Program-made: the position numbers and the translations under genes
Notes under the pieces: generated by a model
What the model was told of the DNA's origin: nothing
Seen by the model: only the letters and a program-made list of their open reading frames with translations
Database searches by the model: none
In this document: one piece after another, positions 5,736 through 53,749 of the stretch
Layout: every line of letters begins with the position of its first letter
Numbering within the stretch: position 1 is the first letter of the stretch
Assembly: GCA_965205865.1 (NCBI GenBank)
Contig: CBDBHR010000028.1
Span: 416,001 to 480,000 of the forward strand
Length of the DNA stretch: 64,000 nt
Source: a bacterium
GTDB taxonomy: Bacteria; SAR324; NAC60-12
Direction of reading: 5' to 3'

Positions 5736-7526
5736 CTATTTGCCCATTTCCCGCTTCAGGTCCTGGTCAATCCAAATGCGAGAGAATATGGTGTTACGGT
5801 CGCCCCATCCCAGATCTACTTCGCCGTTGTAGCCCTTGACCCACGGCTGATTCACGTTAAACCATGGAACCTTGGGGCTCCACACGAGAAAGTGGTTCCG
5901 CGCCAGGTATAGATCTATCTCTCTCACCAGCCTCTGCTGCTCCTCCACCGTGGCCGCGGCCTTGGCCGCGTCGAACATGGCATCGTAGACCGGGTCCCGA
6001 AGTCCAGTATAGTTCTGTTGCCGCCCTGCGCTCGAGTGGTACAAACTCACTGTATGCGTGGCCTCGGCATCAATGGCGGCGAGCCACAAAAACATACCTT
6101 CATAGGTAAGTTCTTTCAAAGCGGCATAAAAAGCAGGATGGTCCAGTACGTTCATCTCGATGTCGACGCCAATCGCATCGAAGTAGGTGGCAGCCAATTG
6201 CGGGTAGTCCAAATCAAAGGTATCTATGAGTAGAAAGTCGGTCTTGAATCGAGTGCCGTCTGCGCCACGAGGATACCCCGCCTCATCAAGGAGCTGCTCC
6301 GCCCTTTGCGGGTTATACGTGTACTCCTCCTTCACATCGTCCGGCCACTCGTCGAACGGAACGCTGTAGCCAACGTGCGCATCTCCTAGCAGCGTTTGCG
6401 GGGTTGCGCTTGCATAACCCTTGTAGAACGTGTTGTTAATTGTCTCGAGGTCGAGCGCCAGCTGCATTGCTATGCGGACATTGACGTCGTTGAAGGGAGG
6501 CTCCATGAGTTTGAACGAGATAGCATTTTCCGCTCGTTGAAAGAATTGCGTAAGCTCGAGCTCTGGGTTGCTTTTGCTAAGCGCGTCTGCCCGATCGATA
6601 GAATCTATCTGAGCGCCGCAGCCGCCCGGCAGACCGATGTAATCTATGCTGCCTGATCGCAATCCGGCATCAATTGTTGCCGTGTCACTCATGAATAGGG
6701 CCGTTAGCTCGTCGATGTAGGGCAGGCGGTTCTCCGGATACTTTTCGTCGAAGCGCCAGTAGTCAGGATTCTTGGTCCACGTGATAGAGCTGCCCTCGAC
6801 GGCGTCGGTGAGCATGTAGGGCCCGGTGCCGACCGAATTTCTCCAGTCCTGCAGGTCGCCATGTTCCTCGATTACCTCGGGCGGGTAAACCCAACTGGAG
6901 TGGTGGACGAGGAGCGTATGCAGTAGACCCGATTGTGGCTCGGTCGTCTTGAATACAACCGTGTACCGATCGGTAGCCGTTATCGACTCAAATGGTATGT
7001 CCTTGAGAGCCTGACTGGGTGAACCTCCGGCTGCGGTGAATTCGCCCATACCCACCATGCGGTGCCAGTTAAAAACTACGTCCTCGGCGGTCAATTCCCT
7101 TCCATTCATTGGTGCCTTATCAAACCAGCGAACGCCCTCACGGATGCGGAAGACATAGGTGTTCGGGTCTGGTTGCTCCCAGCTCTCAGCCAGCGCACCT
7201 CCGATGACTGATACGGGCACGTAGGTCTTTCTTAAACTGAACTGGTCCCGATCGATTTCCCACCTGGCGATGCCGAGCTTCTCGGTAACGCCGGCCTGGG
7301 TGGAACCAGAGAAGCCACCGAACCAGCTGTCAACCATGATAGTCTTGCAGCCTCGATTGGCGAACGTCAATGTCCCACCATACGCCGGCTCGGTCACCAT
7401 CTTGCCGGTGGTGGGATCTTTGACCATCTTGGCTGCCCAGACCTGGCCAGCCATGAAGACGCTTGCTCCCATGATGAGAGCCAGCAGGGTTGCGCTCAAT
7501 TTTGAGCTGCTTTTTAGATTAAACAT
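5736..7526 (-). CDS. Peptide/nickel ABC transporter substrate-binding protein (family 5)
   Basis: Signal peptide after MFNLKSS at ATG 7526 (GGAG upstream). Motifs YGGTL, LAESWEQPD, FRIREGVRW, VGTGPY, KNPDYW, RIAMQLALD. The ORF-track extension to 7733 runs through a repeat. Confidence 0.92.
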   Translation of the reverse strand: MFNLKSSSKLSATLLALIMGASVFMAGQVWAAKMVKDPTTGKMVTEPAYGGTLTFANRGCKTIMVDSWFGGFSGSTQAGVTEKLGIARWEIDRDQFSLRKTYVPVSVIGGALAESWEQPDPNTYVFRIREGVRWFDKAPMNGRELTAEDVVFNWHRMVGMGEFTAAGGSPSQALKDIPFESITATDRYTVVFKTTEPQSGLLHTLLVHHSSWVYPPEVIEEHGDLQDWRNSVGTGPYMLTDAVEGSSITWTKNPDYWRFDEKYPENRLPYIDELTALFMSDTATIDAGLRSGSIDYIGLPGGCGAQIDSIDRADALSKSNPELELTQFFQRAENAISFKLMEPPFNDVNVRIAMQLALDLETINNTFYKGYASATPQTLLGDAHVGYSVPFDEWPDDVKEEYTYNPQRAEQLLDEAGYPRGADGTRFKTDFLLIDTFDLDYPQLAATYFDAIGVDIEMNVLDHPAFYAALKELTYEGMFLWLAAIDAEATHTVSLYHSSAGRQQNYTGLRDPVYDAMFDAAKAAATVEEQQRLVREIDLYLARNHFLVWSPKVPWFNVNQPWVKGYNGEVDLGWGDRNTIFSRIWIDQDLKREMGK

Positions 7527-7568
7527 ACGAGATTCTCCGTTTGGATGTTTAAAAATATTAAGGATTGA

Positions 7569-7729
7569 TTTGAAACCTGCCTTCATGCCCGAAAGCACGT
7601 TCTCGACGATTTCTCTACTTTTTTGACGGTTCAAGGTGCTCCTTTCTGCTTTTTGATTAAAAACAAGATTGCGGGTTGCTTTAAAACCTGCTTTTGTTCC
7701 CGAAAGCACGTTCTCGACGATTGCTCTAC
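7569..7729. repeat. Two ~50-bp direct repeats, 111-bp period, in the leader of the substrate-binding gene
   Basis: aaacctgc(c/t)tt...cccgaaagcacgttctcgacgatt(t/g)ctctac at ~7569-7618 and ~7680-7729. Confidence 0.9.
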
Positions 7730-7915
7730 ACATTGGGTCTCCTTCATTTTCAAGTGATCAAAAAACCGATTCATTGCCTCCAGGATTGGGCAATGAACCA
7801 TAAACCGACGCACTCAGGCGCCGATGATTTTCCAAATTCCCCATTGCCGTTCCCGGAACGGGGAACGAGGGATCTTAGGGATCTCTCCCTGATGTCGAGA
7901 TAAGATAAGGGGGTA

Positions 7916-8010
7916 GAACTTGGGATTGGGGACTTGTGACTTGTTGCTTGGAACTTATTACTGGGAACTGGGAACTGGGAACTGGGAACTTATTGGAACT
8001 GGGAACTGGG
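7916..8010. repeat. Heptanucleotide tandem repeat tract (GGAACTG)n with degenerate units
   Basis: ctgggaactgggaactgggaactgggaacttattggaactgggaactggg, preceded by ACTT-containing 7-mers. Confidence 0.85.
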
Positions 8011-8232
8011 TGTTTAAGATTACTCTCATATCCACCTTATTATCAAGGGATTTTTTAAAAAGATGATTCATTTAATAATTGAGTATTTTCTTATGGTTTT
8101 TAAAGAGTTTACGGACATTTGGGAAGATAAGAATAATTTGATTATTCACTCATCCCTGAAGCTCATTCAATCTAACCTGTAGCAGCAATCATTTTTTTTA
8201 AAAAATCGTAAATATTCAGGTCTCTGAAAAAC

Positions 8233-8443
8233 CCGTTTAGTTCAATATCATTAAAAAAGATTCCCTGGGAGGACCGATCGTTTTCAATTCCTCTCACGAT
8301 ATTGTTCAATCGATCGGGAACCTTCTCTTTCACTGAAACAACTTAATGATGGCTTAAATACAGCACAAAACAACGCAATGTCAACCCCCTGAGGTAAAAT
8401 AAATGCGGGATTCGCAAAAAAAACAAAAAATCAATAAATCTGC
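8233..8443 (-). repeat. ~230-bp dispersed unit, copy 1 (contains a degenerate 36-mer at 8290-8327)
   Basis: Aligns by eye with the copy starting at 8467 (offset 234) and with the reverse complement of 46192-46487. Confidence 0.85.
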
Positions 8444-8466
8444 TCAAATCCGGGGACAGTCAGAAG

Positions 8467-8834
8467 CCGTTCAGTTCAATATCGTTTAAAAAATTCCCGG
8501 AGAGGATCCATCTTTTTCACGTCCTCCCACGATATTATTCAATCGATCAAGCGGGAACCCTCTCCTTCCTTAAAACAACAAGGCATAATTTTAACACTTA
8601 AATACGCAGGGTCAAGCCCCAAATGAAATAAATGCAGGATTCGTAAAAAAAACGATAAGGAATGAAATTTAAATAAGTCAGAAGTATGGATACGCAAATT
8701 TAGGGGACAGGTAACAGCAGGAAAACAGTAGAGTTGGGATGCCGCTGTACATGTCCCCCAATTTTGCTCACACCATTGGAAGAATTACAGGTTATTTAAG
8801 GTTTGTTCCTAAATCAAAAAATCAAGGAAATCCG
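8467..8834 (-). repeat. ~230-bp dispersed unit, copy 2 (36-mer at 8523-8564; end interrupted by a MITE)
   Basis: Shares aaaacaacaaggcat-att-tta, caagccccaaatgaaa and gcaggattcgtaaaaaaaa with the 46.2-kb copy. TTGACC-N16-TAAAAT on the minus strand at 8615-8588. Confidence 0.85.
8656..8812. mobile_element. MITE-like element, copy 1 (TAA-flanked)
   Basis: TAA-GGAATGAAATTTAAATAA...TTATTTAAGGTTTGTTCC-TAA imperfect terminal inverted repeats and an internal GGGGACA...TGTCCCC hairpin. Near-identical to 17906-18069. Confidence 0.85.
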
Positions 8835-8976
8835 CTTCTTTATGATTATGAGCCAAAAAGCAATTGTCCGCTCCACAGTCTCAGACCATTCCTGATCGCT
8901 TGAGTTGCTTGGATACATAAATCTCCTTTTAAAAAATGGAAATTAGTAAACATGCAATTTTTTATCCAAACAGCTT

Positions 8977-17905: not shown

Positions 17906-18069
17906 TAAGGAATGAAATTTAAATAAGTTAGAAGTATGGATACGCAAAATTAGGGTACAGGTAACAGCAGGCATAAAACAGTAGAGTTGGGATGCGCAGC
18001 GGTGTACCTGTCCCCCAATTTTGCTCACACAATTGGAATAATTACAGGTTATTTAAGGTTTGTTCCTAA
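17906..18069. mobile_element. MITE-like element, copy 2 (TAA-flanked)
   Basis: Near-identical to 8656-8812 with small indels; ends 15 bp before the livG-like start codon. Confidence 0.85.
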
Positions 18070-18084
18070 GTCCCGACTACTAAA

Positions 18085-24317: not shown

Positions 24318-25475
24318 TCACAACCGTCCGGGAGAGAGCATTGCTTCGCTGATACCCGCCTCAACCACATGTTTGGGAAAGCGGCGTTCCCGGATAAGGG
24401 AAGCGCAACAGACTGCCATGATTGGAGAAGTTTTGATCCCATATCCACCTTGTCCCACTAACCAGAAAAAATTTTGCACTTGGGGGTCGAATCCTAAGAC
24501 GGGAATACGGTCGCGGACGAAAGAGCGCAATCCGGCCCATTTGTGGCTGACATGTTGAATACGAAAATTAATAGCGGCATGGATTCTGTCGATACCAATC
24601 GCGATATCCAGATCATCCGGCCTGGCATCGTGGGGAGCCACGGGAGTCTCGTCGGCAGGAGAACCGAGAAATTTTCCGGAATCGGGCTTGAAATAGAATT
24701 TTTCGTCAATGTCTATAATCATGGGCCACTTGTCGATTTGGTATACTTCGGGAGGGTTCCCACCCGGTCGATGGCACAATACTGTGGGAGGATTGAACAA
24801 GAATGCCGTTCTTTTTTTGGGGACAAGACCGATTGATTTTGCCCCTGCTAATGTTCCAATGGTCTCTCCCCAGGCACCGGCTGCATTGACAATTAATTTG
24901 CAGGAAAATTCTTCTTTTTCAGTTATCACCAGCCAACCCTCTTGCAAAGATTGCAAGGCAATCACTTTGACATTGGTCGTCAGAGTCCCTCCCTGTTGCC
25001 TCATTGAATGCAGAAATCCTTGATGAAGGGCATGCACGTCAAGGTCCTTCGAATGCGGGTCATAGATGCCTGCCATTGCATATCCCGGTGTCAAAGCAGG
25101 AAAAAGGGAAAATAAATCGCTTTCTTGAAGTTGTTCGACTTTCCTTCCAGCCGTATTGATCCTACGAATTTCACTGTCCATTTGCTCTTTTTGATCTGCA
25201 CGAATAAGAAAGAGGACACCCCTGTCATTCAATAGAGGAAATTCACTGAACCCTTCAGGCGGAGACTGGAGAAATGGTTTGCTCAACTTGGCGAGTCTGC
25301 GAATCACGGAATTGCCGTAAAATTCCGTGAAAAGAGCCGCTGATCTACCCGTCGAATGATAACCAGGGTGCCCTTCCATTTCAAGAACCATCACTTTATG
25401 ATCCTTTGCCAGTTCAAATGCAGCCGAAGTCCCCGCAATGCCTGCGCCAATGACGATGATGTCGATATCTGTCAT
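24318..25475 (-). CDS. FAD-dependent oxidoreductase (DAO/DadA-like) carrying a 36-bp repeat insertion
   Basis: IGAGIAG, GYHSTGRSAA, NAAGAW, WAGLRSF, GQGGYG. The extra segment NPP-TVLCHRPGGNPP is encoded by the repeat. Confidence 0.92.
   Translation of the reverse strand: MTDIDIIVIGAGIAGTSAAFELAKDHKVMVLEMEGHPGYHSTGRSAALFTEFYGNSVIRRLAKLSKPFLQSPPEGFSEFPLLNDRGVLFLIRADQKEQMDSEIRRINTAGRKVEQLQESDLFSLFPALTPGYAMAGIYDPHSKDLDVHALHQGFLHSMRQQGGTLTTNVKVIALQSLQEGWLVITEKEEFSCKLIVNAAGAWGETIGTLAGAKSIGLVPKKRTAFLFNPPTVLCHRPGGNPPEVYQIDKWPMIIDIDEKFYFKPDSGKFLGSPADETPVAPHDARPDDLDIAIGIDRIHAAINFRIQHVSHKWAGLRSFVRDRIPVLGFDPQVQNFFWLVGQGGYGIKTSPIMAVCCASLIRERRFPKHVVEAGISEAMLSPGRL
24750..24791. repeat. 36-bp hairpin repeat, intragenic copy with GGGAGG direct repeat at both ends
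   Basis: GGGAGG-GTTCCCACCCGGTCGATGGCACAATACTGT-GGGAGG; 29/36 identical to the unit at 46332. Confidence 0.9.
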
Positions 25476-25654: not shown

Positions 25655-25696
25655 GTGAGGGTTCCCACCCCCATCGATCGGACAATATGTGGGAAT
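25655..25696. repeat. 36-bp hairpin repeat, intergenic copy
   Basis: GTGAGGGTTCCCACCCCCATCGATCGGACAATATGT-GGGAAT. Confidence 0.8.
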
Positions 25697-29815: not shown

Positions 29816-30601
29816 TTATTTGCCGGTGAAAGACTGAGTTGAGAAGACGGTTGAAGAATCTGAGGGTTCCCACCCGGTCGATCGAACAATACCGGAGGAG
29901 GAACAGGGTGTTTGCAGGTCTTGCCACTGTCCCCGGACGAGTACTTGCGCGGGACGGTATTCGGCCTTGTAGTTCATTTTGTAAGAATCTTTGACCCAAA
30001 ATCCCAGATAGAGCCAGGGAATCTTTAATTCCCGGCAGTATTCGATTTCATAAAGAATTGAATAGACTCCCAAGCGACGGAATGCGAAATCAGGGTGGAA
30101 GATGAAATAAACAGAACTGATAGCGGACGGCAAGCGATCAATCCAACTCACTCCGACGAGAAGATCTCCCAAGTAATAATGCGCCATCTCCGTATCTACC
30201 GGGCTTTCAATCAAAAAATTTTGAAATTCCCAAAAATCCGGCTTCTCGGAATTGTGATGCCATGCCACTTGATATTTCTGGTAAAGCTCAAAGCTCTCCC
30301 GGGAAAAATCAACAGGGTAATGTTCGATGCAAAGATCCTGGTTTTTTTGCCATGTCCGGCGTTGGCTCTTTGTCATGCGAAACTGCTTGACATCCACTCG
30401 AAGTGGGATGCAGAGGTGGCAATTGTTGCAGATAGGATGGTACACGGAACAACCGCTGCGCCGAAAACCATGGTTGAGTAATTTTTCGTAGGTTGCACCA
30501 GGGAGCGTTTCGGTTTCGAATGTGAGGTTCTCCCAAATACCCTTGTTTCGATAAGGACAAGGGCCATTGTTGGTGTGATAAAGTTTAAAATTCAGTGTCA
30601 T
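29816..30601 (-). CDS. Arginyl-tRNA-protein transferase family (bacterial Bpt-type aminoacyl transferase)
   Basis: GPCPY, GFRRSG...YHPICNNCHLCIPLR, SQRR, SSVYFIFHP, YLGFWV, KMNYK. The C-terminal tail contains a 36-bp repeat. Confidence 0.9.
   Translation of the reverse strand: MTLNFKLYHTNNGPCPYRNKGIWENLTFETETLPGATYEKLLNHGFRRSGCSVYHPICNNCHLCIPLRVDVKQFRMTKSQRRTWQKNQDLCIEHYPVDFSRESFELYQKYQVAWHHNSEKPDFWEFQNFLIESPVDTEMAHYYLGDLLVGVSWIDRLPSAISSVYFIFHPDFAFRRLGVYSILYEIEYCRELKIPWLYLGFWVKDSYKMNYKAEYRPAQVLVRGQWQDLQTPCSSSGIVRSTGWEPSDSSTVFSTQSFTGK
29860..29901. repeat. 36-bp hairpin repeat within the 3' coding tail of the ate/bpt gene
   Basis: CTGAGGGTTCCCACCCGGTCGATCGAACAATACCGG-AGGAGG; encodes SSGIVRSTGWEPS. 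Confidence 0.85.
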
Positions 30602-30647
30602 AGTTGGCCTGAAATTGAACCAATTTTAGCTTTTTCCCGGAGAATGA

Positions 30648-46191: not shown

Positions 46192-46487
46192 GATTTATTG
46201 ATTTTTTAATTTTTTTTACGAATCCTGCTTTTTTTTCATTTGGGGCTTGAGGCTGCGTAGTAGTGCTAAAATCATGCCTTGTTGTTTTAAAGAAGGAGAG
46301 GATTCCCACCCGATCGATTCAAAATAGGCGCGGGAGGGTTCCCGCCCGTTCAATTGAACAATATCGTGGGAGGGTTCCCGCCCGTTCAATTGAACAATAT
46401 CGTGGGAGGGTTCCCGCCCGTTCAATTGAACAATATCGTGGGAGGACTTGAAAGCGATGGATCCTCCCCGGGAATCTTTTTTCAGAG
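46192..46487 (+). repeat. ~230-bp dispersed unit, copy 3, expanded by tandem 36-mers
   Basis: Reverse complement aligns with 8233-8443 and 8467-8653. Confidence 0.88.
46296..46445. repeat. Tandem array of the 36-bp repeat (1 divergent and 3 identical units)
   Basis: GGGAGGGTTCCCGCCCGTTCAATTGAACAATATCGT at 46332, 46368 and 46404; divergent unit at 46296; terminal GGGAGG; no spacers. Confidence 0.95.
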
Positions 46488-46502
46488 TGTGTCCCACTTA
46501 AT

Positions 46503-48733: not shown

Positions 48734-50259
<1,526 letters not shown>

Positions 50260-50500
50260 AATTTCTTGAATTTATTCCAAGAGATAAGGTCGATGCCCTT
50301 CTTGTTTTTTTCGTCTGACCCCTTGTCGTAAGATTATTTACCTTTTGGTATGTTGGTGGAAAAATAGAAGCAATTCTGTTTTTGTGTCTCCAGTCTAAAG
50401 GTTTTTAGTTGTTCTTAGAAAATGGAATCAGAAAATTGTTTAAACTTTCACCCGGGTAGAGGTGAAGGTTTTATCTTCAAGAGAAATTTGGTTTCAAGAG

Positions 50501-53440
<2,940 letters not shown>

Positions 53441-53500
53441 TGAAAAACCAAATATTCTTTGATAAAACCTTCACCACTTTCAGGGTGGGCAACTAATTGC

Positions 53501-53621
53501 TTTCCGGTGCTTATGGCAAGGGGGATATACCTGTACCCTTCCCGAACACAGAAGTCAAGTCCCTTTGCGCCTATGGTACTGCCAGGGAAACCGCGGTGGG
53601 AGAGTCGGACGGTGCCGGAAA
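53501..53621 (+). rRNA. rrf: 5S rRNA
   Basis: TTTCCGGTG...CCGAAC...GAAGTCAAG...GGGAGAGT...GCCGGAAA following the 23S gene. Confidence 0.95.
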
Positions 53622-53662
53622 TCTTTAATATAGAAGAATCGATAATAACAATCCTCGCGGTT

Positions 53663-53749
53663 GCCGAGGTGGTGAAATTGGTAGACGCGCTGGATTCAAA
53701 ATCCAGTGGGGGCAACCCCGTGCCGGTTCGATTCCGGCTCTCGGCACCA
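53663..53749 (+). tRNA. tRNA-Leu (CAA)
   Basis: GCCGAGG acceptor stem, CTGGA-TTCAAAA-TCCAG anticodon arm, long variable arm, GGTTCGATTCC, CCA end. Confidence 0.97.

Follow-up and report, generated by a model that had tools for sequence, protein, structure and literature searches.

A genus-restricted 36-bp repeat inserted in frame in an oxidoreductase gene and in other genes of a SAR324 bacterium

The DNA analysed here, referred to as the window, is a 64,000-nt stretch of the genome of a SAR324 bacterium (GTDB lineage Bacteria; SAR324; NAC60-12; GenBank assembly GCA_965205865.1, contig CBDBHR010000028.1, positions 416,001 to 480,000 of the forward strand). Within it, a gene for an FAD oxidoreductase carries 36 bp belonging to a dispersed repeat, and comparison with relatives shows a lineage-specific insertion of one period of a repeat that is specific to the genus. 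Taken as a whole, the best explanation, to which we give a probability of roughly 0.55, is that single units were inserted by copying at sites of microhomology and that selection then filtered the results. The gene and the repeat unit lie as follows:

24318..25475, minus strand: gene for a DAO-family FAD oxidoreductase, DauA-like, 385 aa (PF01266 and PDB 3nyc)
24750..24791, plus strand: repeat unit, GGGAGG + 30 bp + GGGAGG, with an exact 36-bp gap in the ortholog of the related genome G001

The oxidoreductase gene and its 12 extra codons

The host protein matches PF01266 over residues 5-359 (E 2.7e-48), and its closest solved relative is the D-arginine dehydrogenase DauA (PDB 3nyc; E 8.4e-91, residues 3-385); on these matches the gene is assigned to the DAO-family FAD oxidoreductases of the D-amino-acid-dehydrogenase type. 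The repeat unit is read antisense, and the translation runs ...KKRTAFLFNPP TVLCHRPGGNPP EVYQIDKWP..., the 12 added residues being TVLCHRPGGNPP. The inserted 36 bp can be placed equally well at 24756-24791 or 24750-24785. An earlier reading of the letters alone, referred to here as the original prediction, had described 36 bp flanked by GGGAGG, a TCCCAC/GTGGGA stem and the protein sequence FNPP-TVLCHRPGGNPP-EVY, and all three are borne out by the sequence and its translation, the inverted repeat being present in this copy.

Homologs were expected to show a clean 12-aa gap, and such a gap is seen in 16 of 17 aligned proteins (the 13 best and four lower-ranked among 120 listed), which range from 81% down to 48% identity; the alignment to DauA (3nyc) also lacks the extra residues. 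Among the 17, the insert is shared only by P0001, a protein of the same length that is 97% identical and has three insert residues changed. Of the close homologs, just two are named (62% and 55% identical), and both come from SAR324 metagenome-assembled genomes. The ortholog in G001, the one other genome of the genus in the comparison, has 373 aa and is 79% identical; its DNA shows a single gap of exactly 36 bp, and the empty site holds one CCTCC. Outside the window's genus, a protein-guided scan of a genome-contig collection returned only relatives that were 37-49% identical. The refuting conditions set out with the original prediction did not overturn it, and further intragenic copies and empty sites were found, in line with it.

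An ancestral origin of the 12 residues, with later loss from the relatives, is extremely improbable, and so is an assembly artefact. Such an origin is a formal possibility, and short repeats can mislead assemblers; against it stand the 16 of 17 homologs without the residues, the membership of this DNA in a family of 236 copies, and the presence of the insert in the 97%-identical protein, which is from another source. When contigs of four of 24 listed public runs were compared with the window, those of three other runs, from different studies, also counted against it, crossing the insert without a gap and giving no 36-bp deletion allele. RNA-library contigs end at 24756 and resume at 24789, and since they break at the repeat they are silent on transcription across the insert.

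The original prediction proposed that the element adds peptide loops to proteins, and asked whether this one is a surface loop. In an AlphaFold2 model of the host protein (mean predicted local distance difference test, pLDDT, 89.9) the insert is coil with pLDDT <50 between strands 218-227 and 252-255, so that it is modelled as a low-confidence loop between two confident strands, in agreement with that suggestion.

A dispersed family found in one genus

The genome (G000 in the comparisons) comprises 4.74 Mb in 30 contigs with 48% G+C, and its gene calls are a longest open reading frame (ORF) approximation. The whole-genome profile scan proposed at the outset, using a profile built from the copies, gave 236 matches at E<1, vs none in the reversed genome, with intragenic copies among them. 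These matches merge into 176 loci, 105 of them parts of a larger leader unit and 71 others. With a covariance model (150 candidates scored per genome), four of 31 relatives were matched at E<=1e-3, namely G000 with 136 matches, G001 with 81 and two others with one marginal match each, and at E<=1e-5 the matches were confined to two of the 88 genomes of the phylum that were searched. Among those 88 genomes the repeat family was thus found only in one genus, to which it appears restricted. Plasmid and phage collections gave zero matches to the array with its flanks.

The element was originally not recognised as a described family, and this has held: no description of the 36-bp family was found in literature searches, and Rfam at the gathering score returned only rRNA and tRNA across the whole window. 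At E<=1, three chance-level Rfam matches were seen over 7700-8900. A known RNA family was rejected as a candidate, there being no Rfam match beyond rRNA, tRNA and chance level.

Copies are considerably diverged. A search with the exact 36-mer of the oxidoreductase gene, allowing <=3 mismatches, matched only itself (0 expected by chance), which indicates that the remaining copies have diverged, and the nearest other copy is identical at just 32-33 of 36 bases. The ends and a central TCGAT are conserved in the alignment of diverged copies. The TCCCAC/GTGGGA stem pairs in 85.7% of cells, vs 46-62% with the partner slid, and its six positions pair in 84-99% of 82 distinct copies. The inverted repeat measures 6-7 bp around a 20-nt loop, which is very short for the terminal inverted repeat of a MITE. 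RNAalifold predicted no stem from 20 copies, no covariation was found beyond shuffles, and folding energies were not better than those of shuffled sequences (z of +0.99, +0.33, +0.70 and -1.09 for four unit contexts, and -1.48 for one leader). The original prediction also gave as a property of the element that it has no stop codon in any of six frames. This is true of the copy at 24750-24791, which has zero stops across its six frames, but not of the family, as only 6/43 ungapped non-leader units and 0/66 leader units share this property.

Differences between the two species

Seven exact 36-bp differences in presence were found against G001, with five copies in this genome and two in G001. Those specific to this genome lie in the oxidoreductase gene, at AlaRS site 1, at RecC sites 1 and 2 and in Lhr; those specific to G001 lie at a PheT site and at a site upstream of recC. 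Every clean insertion seen is exactly one 36-bp period, or 12 codons. Copies common to both species are found at AlaRS site 3, in RecB, at the recC/recB junction and at C25:94553/94326 (contig and position). The comparison therefore shows that insertions occurred both before and after the species split, and in both lineages. At one orthologous solo site a single unit in this genome corresponds to two in G001, and arrays likewise differ between the species by whole 36-bp periods.

Some comparisons are less clear. In Lpd the copy lies in a variable linker and the comparison is ambiguous, as it is for the tRNA-protein transferase Bpt, where the tail is not conserved and no G001 ortholog was found with that query. 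GlgA has 12 extra residues relative to G004, as a split 7+5 gap, with no G001 match found, and one G001 site shows a 35-bp gap in a poorly aligned spacer.

The original prediction of a minimal 36-bp mobile element is supported by the lineage-specific insertions, with the correction that about 60% of the loci are not free-standing 36-mers but modules of a larger unit upstream of transporter genes. The word mobile is used here as an inference from presence and absence between species, from which the unit would seem to move; no polymorphism within a species came to light.

Copies inside genes

The 71 loci outside leader units are solo units or short arrays, located at operon junctions or inside genes, and 43 of 49 near-full-length non-leader copies have the standard 36-bp length. 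On the crude ORF map, 38 non-leader matches fall within 30 ORFs. A host gene was counted if it was Pfam-supported and its match had E<=0.03 or its copy was gap-verified; Pfam families could be assigned to 13/13 ORFs in one set and 11/15 in another. Excluded were five weak partial matches (E 0.1-0.9) in five further genes, and three in ORFs without Pfam support.

By this count, in-frame copies are present in 18 Pfam-supported genes and in one IS66-type ORF. The 18 encode Lpd-like, PurL (near the 3' end), GlgA, PheT, RecC, RecB and AlaRS proteins; a DUF255 protein (the copy possibly upstream of the true start), a phage-type integrase, an acyltransferase, the DauA-like oxidoreductase, Bpt and a 5'-nucleotidase; and an SNF2/NOV_C helicase (4 copies), Lhr, a cupin protein, a Tricorn-like protease and an MFS transporter (a 72-bp composite). 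Across these host genes all six frames of the unit are read. Other genic copies separate Pfam domains, follow a signal peptide or occupy tails. The composite in the MFS gene resembles one unit nested inside another.

Two of these cases have further features. The IS66-type ORF is present in seven copies, each with one unit in frame in the N-terminal ORF (DUF6444 region), at C17:4232-4771, C23:449-982, C25:140474-140998, C25:257222-257701, C28:64384-64863, C28:116377-116820 and C30:489680. The PurL-type ORF (C24:212941-216030, 1029 aa) stops 23 codons past its repeat copy, and the glutamine-amidotransferase-like part follows as a separate ORF in another frame.

Target sites and junctions

The empty sites are short runs of the types TGGAGG, GAAGG-, GAAAGG-, GGGGA- and GAAGAAG. 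The alignments show insertions at short, GA-rich, GGAGG-like sites, with a GGAGG-like motif left on both sides. At six or more solo loci an ORF of at least 250 aa has its start codon 4-8 nt past the 3' GGAGG, and several solo loci begin with the TGA that terminates the preceding ORF. One junction copy, of two units, precedes the ORF at C27:107280. Such units would occupy the stop/Shine-Dalgarno junction of an operon and re-create a Shine-Dalgarno sequence at their 3' end, and with this regenerated the downstream gene would keep its ribosome-binding site. Targeting of Shine-Dalgarno-like GGAGG/CCTCC sites had been proposed originally, and it fits both the GA-rich empty sites and the several solo copies lying exactly at Shine-Dalgarno positions.

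Whereas 81.5% of GGAGG sites lie in ORFs, only 33 of the 71 non-leader loci do so (crude ORF map), so most genic insertions were probably removed by selection. Orientation relative to genes is 26 sense vs 7 (IS66 duplicates included), which is near the motif's own 60% sense bias, and orientation against GC skew is 17 vs 11 on the G-rich strand, equal to that of genes (60%). No clear replication-strand or sense-strand bias beyond target availability is evident. The junction sequences look element-like rather than like target copies of fixed length, which would fit copying guided by microhomology. With regard to the fixed-length target-site duplication of MITEs, the flanking repeats are 4-6 nt long, differ in sequence from site to site and run into the end of the element itself, with divergence between the species blurring the junctions.

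Leader units before transporter genes

The larger unit that contains 105 of the 176 loci is conserved and about 235 bp long. It consists of a TTGACA/TAnAAT-type promoter-like pair, about 35 nt, 1-4 repeat units, a GGGAGGA/TCCTCCC hairpin with a T run, and a conserved tail. The repeat is 4 nt shorter in 48 of 134 near-full-length leader copies. Leader units are arranged in same-strand chains of 2-4, spaced 230-280 bp apart, and an ORF of one paralogous family lies within 2.5 kb of 51 of the 71 chains. Where these ORFs are on the same strand, 51 of 53 are downstream of the chain, 18 of them starting 104-124 nt past the last unit. Pfam searches with three members of the family identified SBP_bac_5 binding proteins (ABC transporter). 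The median identity of the paralogs is 46%, far below the likeness among their leader units. The same leader units are present in G001, and their downstream flanks are repeated at 82-97% identity, so orthology of leaders between the species is ambiguous.

A simple promoter and terminator scan of 7700-8900 gave counts near those of shuffled sequence (5 vs 2.2 and 1 vs 1.2, respectively). The leader unit may serve as a regulatory leader shared among genes, represent a family of small-RNA genes or act as a mobile promoter cassette. At 21 leader chains, remnants of IS66 transposase were observed on the upstream side.

Other copies in the window

The original prediction counted nine copies in the window, and the profile search recovered all of them. 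In addition to the unit in the oxidoreductase gene, they are:

8288..8327, minus strand: leader-type unit with a repeat 4 nt shorter, upstream of the SBP_bac_5 gene at 5736-7733 (minus strand)
8521..8564, minus strand: second leader-type unit, 233 bp farther upstream on the same strand
25655..25688, plus strand: solo copy, truncated on its 3' side, in the spacer between an ankyrin-repeat gene and the oxidoreductase gene
29860..29902, plus strand: solo copy that the arginyl/leucyl-tRNA protein transferase gene at 29816-30601 (minus strand) reads antisense, in its C-terminal tail (residues 234-248)
46296..46447, plus strand: four-unit array of exact 36-bp period, within a leader-type unit at 46230-46490 ending in the GGGAGGA/TCCTCCC hairpin and T run

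Tandem Repeats Finder gave the array at 46296 a period of 36 and 4.1 copies, and a repeat finder grouped the unit at 24750 in one family with 29859-29904 and the four tandem units at 46295-46448. At 48734-53746, 2.3 kb downstream of the array, lies a complete rRNA operon (16S, 23S, 5S) with a tRNA. The tail of the transferase (Bpt) that holds the copy at 29860 is not conserved, and the comparison with G004 is ambiguous. In the same gene, one contig of run X13 and one contig of the RNA library X17 skip 510 bp (30135-30646), and nine letters are common to both sides of the joint; some strains may thus carry a deletion here.

Other repeats were also seen in the window. A 7-bp tandem repeat (about 6.9 copies) occupies 7960-8010, between the SBP gene and its leader units, and an 86-bp direct repeat (78% identical, 111 bp apart) lies at 7533-7729, inside the 5' part of that gene. 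Two more dispersed modules, of 66 and 73 bp, are each present at 8656-8815 and again at 17906-18072 with 93-95% identity, and one of them is also found upstream of a leader unit at C30:1020 kb.

How the unit may spread and persist

Copying-in guided by the unit's own boundary motif is our best guess as to route, at slightly under even odds. It is favoured because the bases at the junctions seem to come from the element and because the flanking repeats are not constant. The unit is bounded by GGAGG, and so any GGAGG-like site would resemble an array with zero units. The donor's boundary motif would pair with the target and one period would be copied in from an existing unit, by copy-in or template switching during replication or repair, which would be the same type of event as the growth of an array from n to n+1. 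As 36 is a multiple of three, the frame would never be broken, and selection would retain the copies that are stop-free in the frame read and that lie in tolerant loops, linkers or tails.

A number of points weigh against this account. No insertion was caught in the act, and with the closest other copy identical at just 32-33 of 36 bases it is not possible to point to a donor, and the family may now be inactive. To our knowledge, bacteria have no established process in which templates are frequently switched between distant loci on the strength of only 4-6 nt of homology. Protein sequences of the two species differ by about 20%, so the junction differences may be later mutations, and the nested-looking composite in the MFS gene sits at a site that is not GGAGG-like. 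The clean one-unit insertions at many of the 71 non-leader loci could point equally to an enzyme, and the conserved central TCGAT and ends could reflect recognition by a protein.

A dedicated trans-acting enzyme that reads the inverted repeat and central palindrome, and inserts the unit beside GGAGG-like sites, is possible but doubtful. It might be an HUH (Y1) transposase-like protein, as for REPs and the ends of IS200/IS605, or a site-specific recombinase, and the unit would then be a non-autonomous nano-element. Unit boundaries are identical in seven independent events, the family is confined to one genus, the ends and TCGAT are conserved, the 6-7 bp inverted repeat has been kept (84-99% of 82 distinct copies at six positions), a nested-looking copy exists, and the genome holds 15 matches to Y1_Tnp (PF01797), all of which would suit an enzyme. 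Yet none of those 15 lies less than 2 kb from a copy (the nearest is at 2,070 bp and the rest at >5 kb), the orientation bias is no greater than that of genes (17 vs 11; genes 60%), the flanking repeats vary in length and sequence, and the ends carry no GTAG or CGTC tag. As a separate observation, five paralogous 335-aa ORFs with a Y1-transposase domain are clustered within 24 kb at C29:722638-745882, none of them beside a 36-bp repeat.

The persistence of copies is a different question from their route of insertion, and here it could be supposed that the unit is a portable regulatory module that spread because it is useful, the genic copies being by-products; this would be compatible with either mechanism, and we consider it unlikely. 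The 5' UUCCCAC would pair with the 3' GUGGGAG(G) and mask the Shine-Dalgarno sequence, or the unit would be a factor-binding site that also acts on the transporter leaders. The six or more solo loci at start codons, the 105 loci in conserved leader units before SBP genes and the excess pairing of the named stem (85.7% of cells vs 46-62% slid) are consistent with such a role, but predicted folding is no better than shuffled, RNAalifold gives no stem, covariation is not above shuffles, and a regulatory role cannot apply to the copies that 18 genes carry, read in all six frames.

A bolder reading, which we regard as improbable, would make the unit the smallest self-spreading, coding-compatible bacterial element so far described, templated by short RNAs from the leader units or by cDNA from the group II intron reverse transcriptases that the genome encodes. 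If true, one-period insertions at GGAGG-like sites would be templated from a transcribed reservoir of more than 100 leader units; a unit at a ribosome-binding site would form an anti-Shine-Dalgarno/Shine-Dalgarno hairpin that retunes translation, and within genes it would supply ready-made 12-residue loops.

Significance and comparison with known systems

The seven exact one-period sites in two species make a clean natural data set on the insertion of a small repeat without a linked transposase, a question also raised by the small dispersed repeats (SDR) of cyanobacteria. A unit that lands in, and regenerates, Shine-Dalgarno-like motifs ties the spread of a repeat to ribosome-binding sites, and also to the evolution of loops in essential enzymes (AlaRS, PheRS, RecBC, Lhr). 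Annotators may recognise in such inserts the cause of unexpected 12-residue gaps in alignments, and metagenome assemblies may break at them (metatranscriptome contigs end on either side of this repeat).

The Rickettsia palindromic elements (RPE) were reportedly described by Ogata et al. in 2000. In PMC10969869 they are given as about 100-150 bp, with a conserved peptide of their own, inserted in frame in genes, which agrees with the original prediction that RPE insert in this manner but are longer. Both they and the present unit are dispersed palindromic repeats found in frame in many unrelated housekeeping genes, where the extra peptide is tolerated, and both are also intergenic. The present unit differs (the two were compared by description) in being 36 bp, read in six frames, arranged also in tandem arrays, placed at GGAGG-like sites and mostly in transporter leaders, and in belonging to another phylum. 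It extends in-gene 'selfish DNA', best known from the 100-150-bp Rickettsia elements, to a 12-codon unit and to a free-living or symbiotic lineage of a different phylum.

The SDR of Nostoc, which Elhai et al. are said to have described in 2008, measure 21-27 nt, and SDR5 targets HIP1; we do not know them as frequent in-frame gene inserts. PMC5861425 reports them only in Nostocaceae. As described in PMC3116915 and PMC5861425, they resemble the present family in being very small and apparently mobile, in having a short target motif and nested copies, and in lacking a known enzyme. They differ from it in that its unit is 36 bp, its targets are Shine-Dalgarno-like, and it occurs in one genus of a different phylum.

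REP and REPIN sequences carry a GTAG or CGTC tag at one end, according to PMC3733652. REP/REPIN-RAYT systems (PMC3116915, PMC3733652) are like the 36-bp unit in that both fall in the 20-40 bp size range, are present in many copies, occur at operon junctions and might form hairpins. The unit, unlike these, has no GTAG/CGTC tag and no flanking Y1 transposase, is not extragenic only, and has a 6-7 bp stem with a 20-nt loop. Membership in REP/REPIN-RAYT was rejected on its GAGG/GGAGG-type ends, the absence of RAYT linkage and the genic copies.

BOX elements of Streptococcus pneumoniae are built of boxA-boxB(n)-boxC modules. As we know them, they resemble the leader units, which are likewise modular, with a fixed 5' part, 1-4 internal units and a fixed 3' part; here, unlike BOX, the internal unit also occurs solo at many sites and in genes, and the modules stand specifically before SBP genes. 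The mycobacterial interspersed repetitive units (MIRU), reportedly described by Supply et al. in 1997, overlap with stop and start codons, and we know of no in-frame MIRU inserts in many genes. PMC3184786 describes them as 40-100 bp units, often tandem, of variable copy number and located in operon spacers. The 36-bp repeat is similar in forming tandem, variable-number units in operon spacers, and differs in having a shorter unit.

In-frame fusion of small repeats with genes has been recorded for RPE, ERIC, BOX/RUP and others in PMC10969869 and PMC3184786. The present repeat is thus of a known kind, an RPE-like and SDR-like small repeat found within genes, and the 36-bp family itself is new and unusually small.

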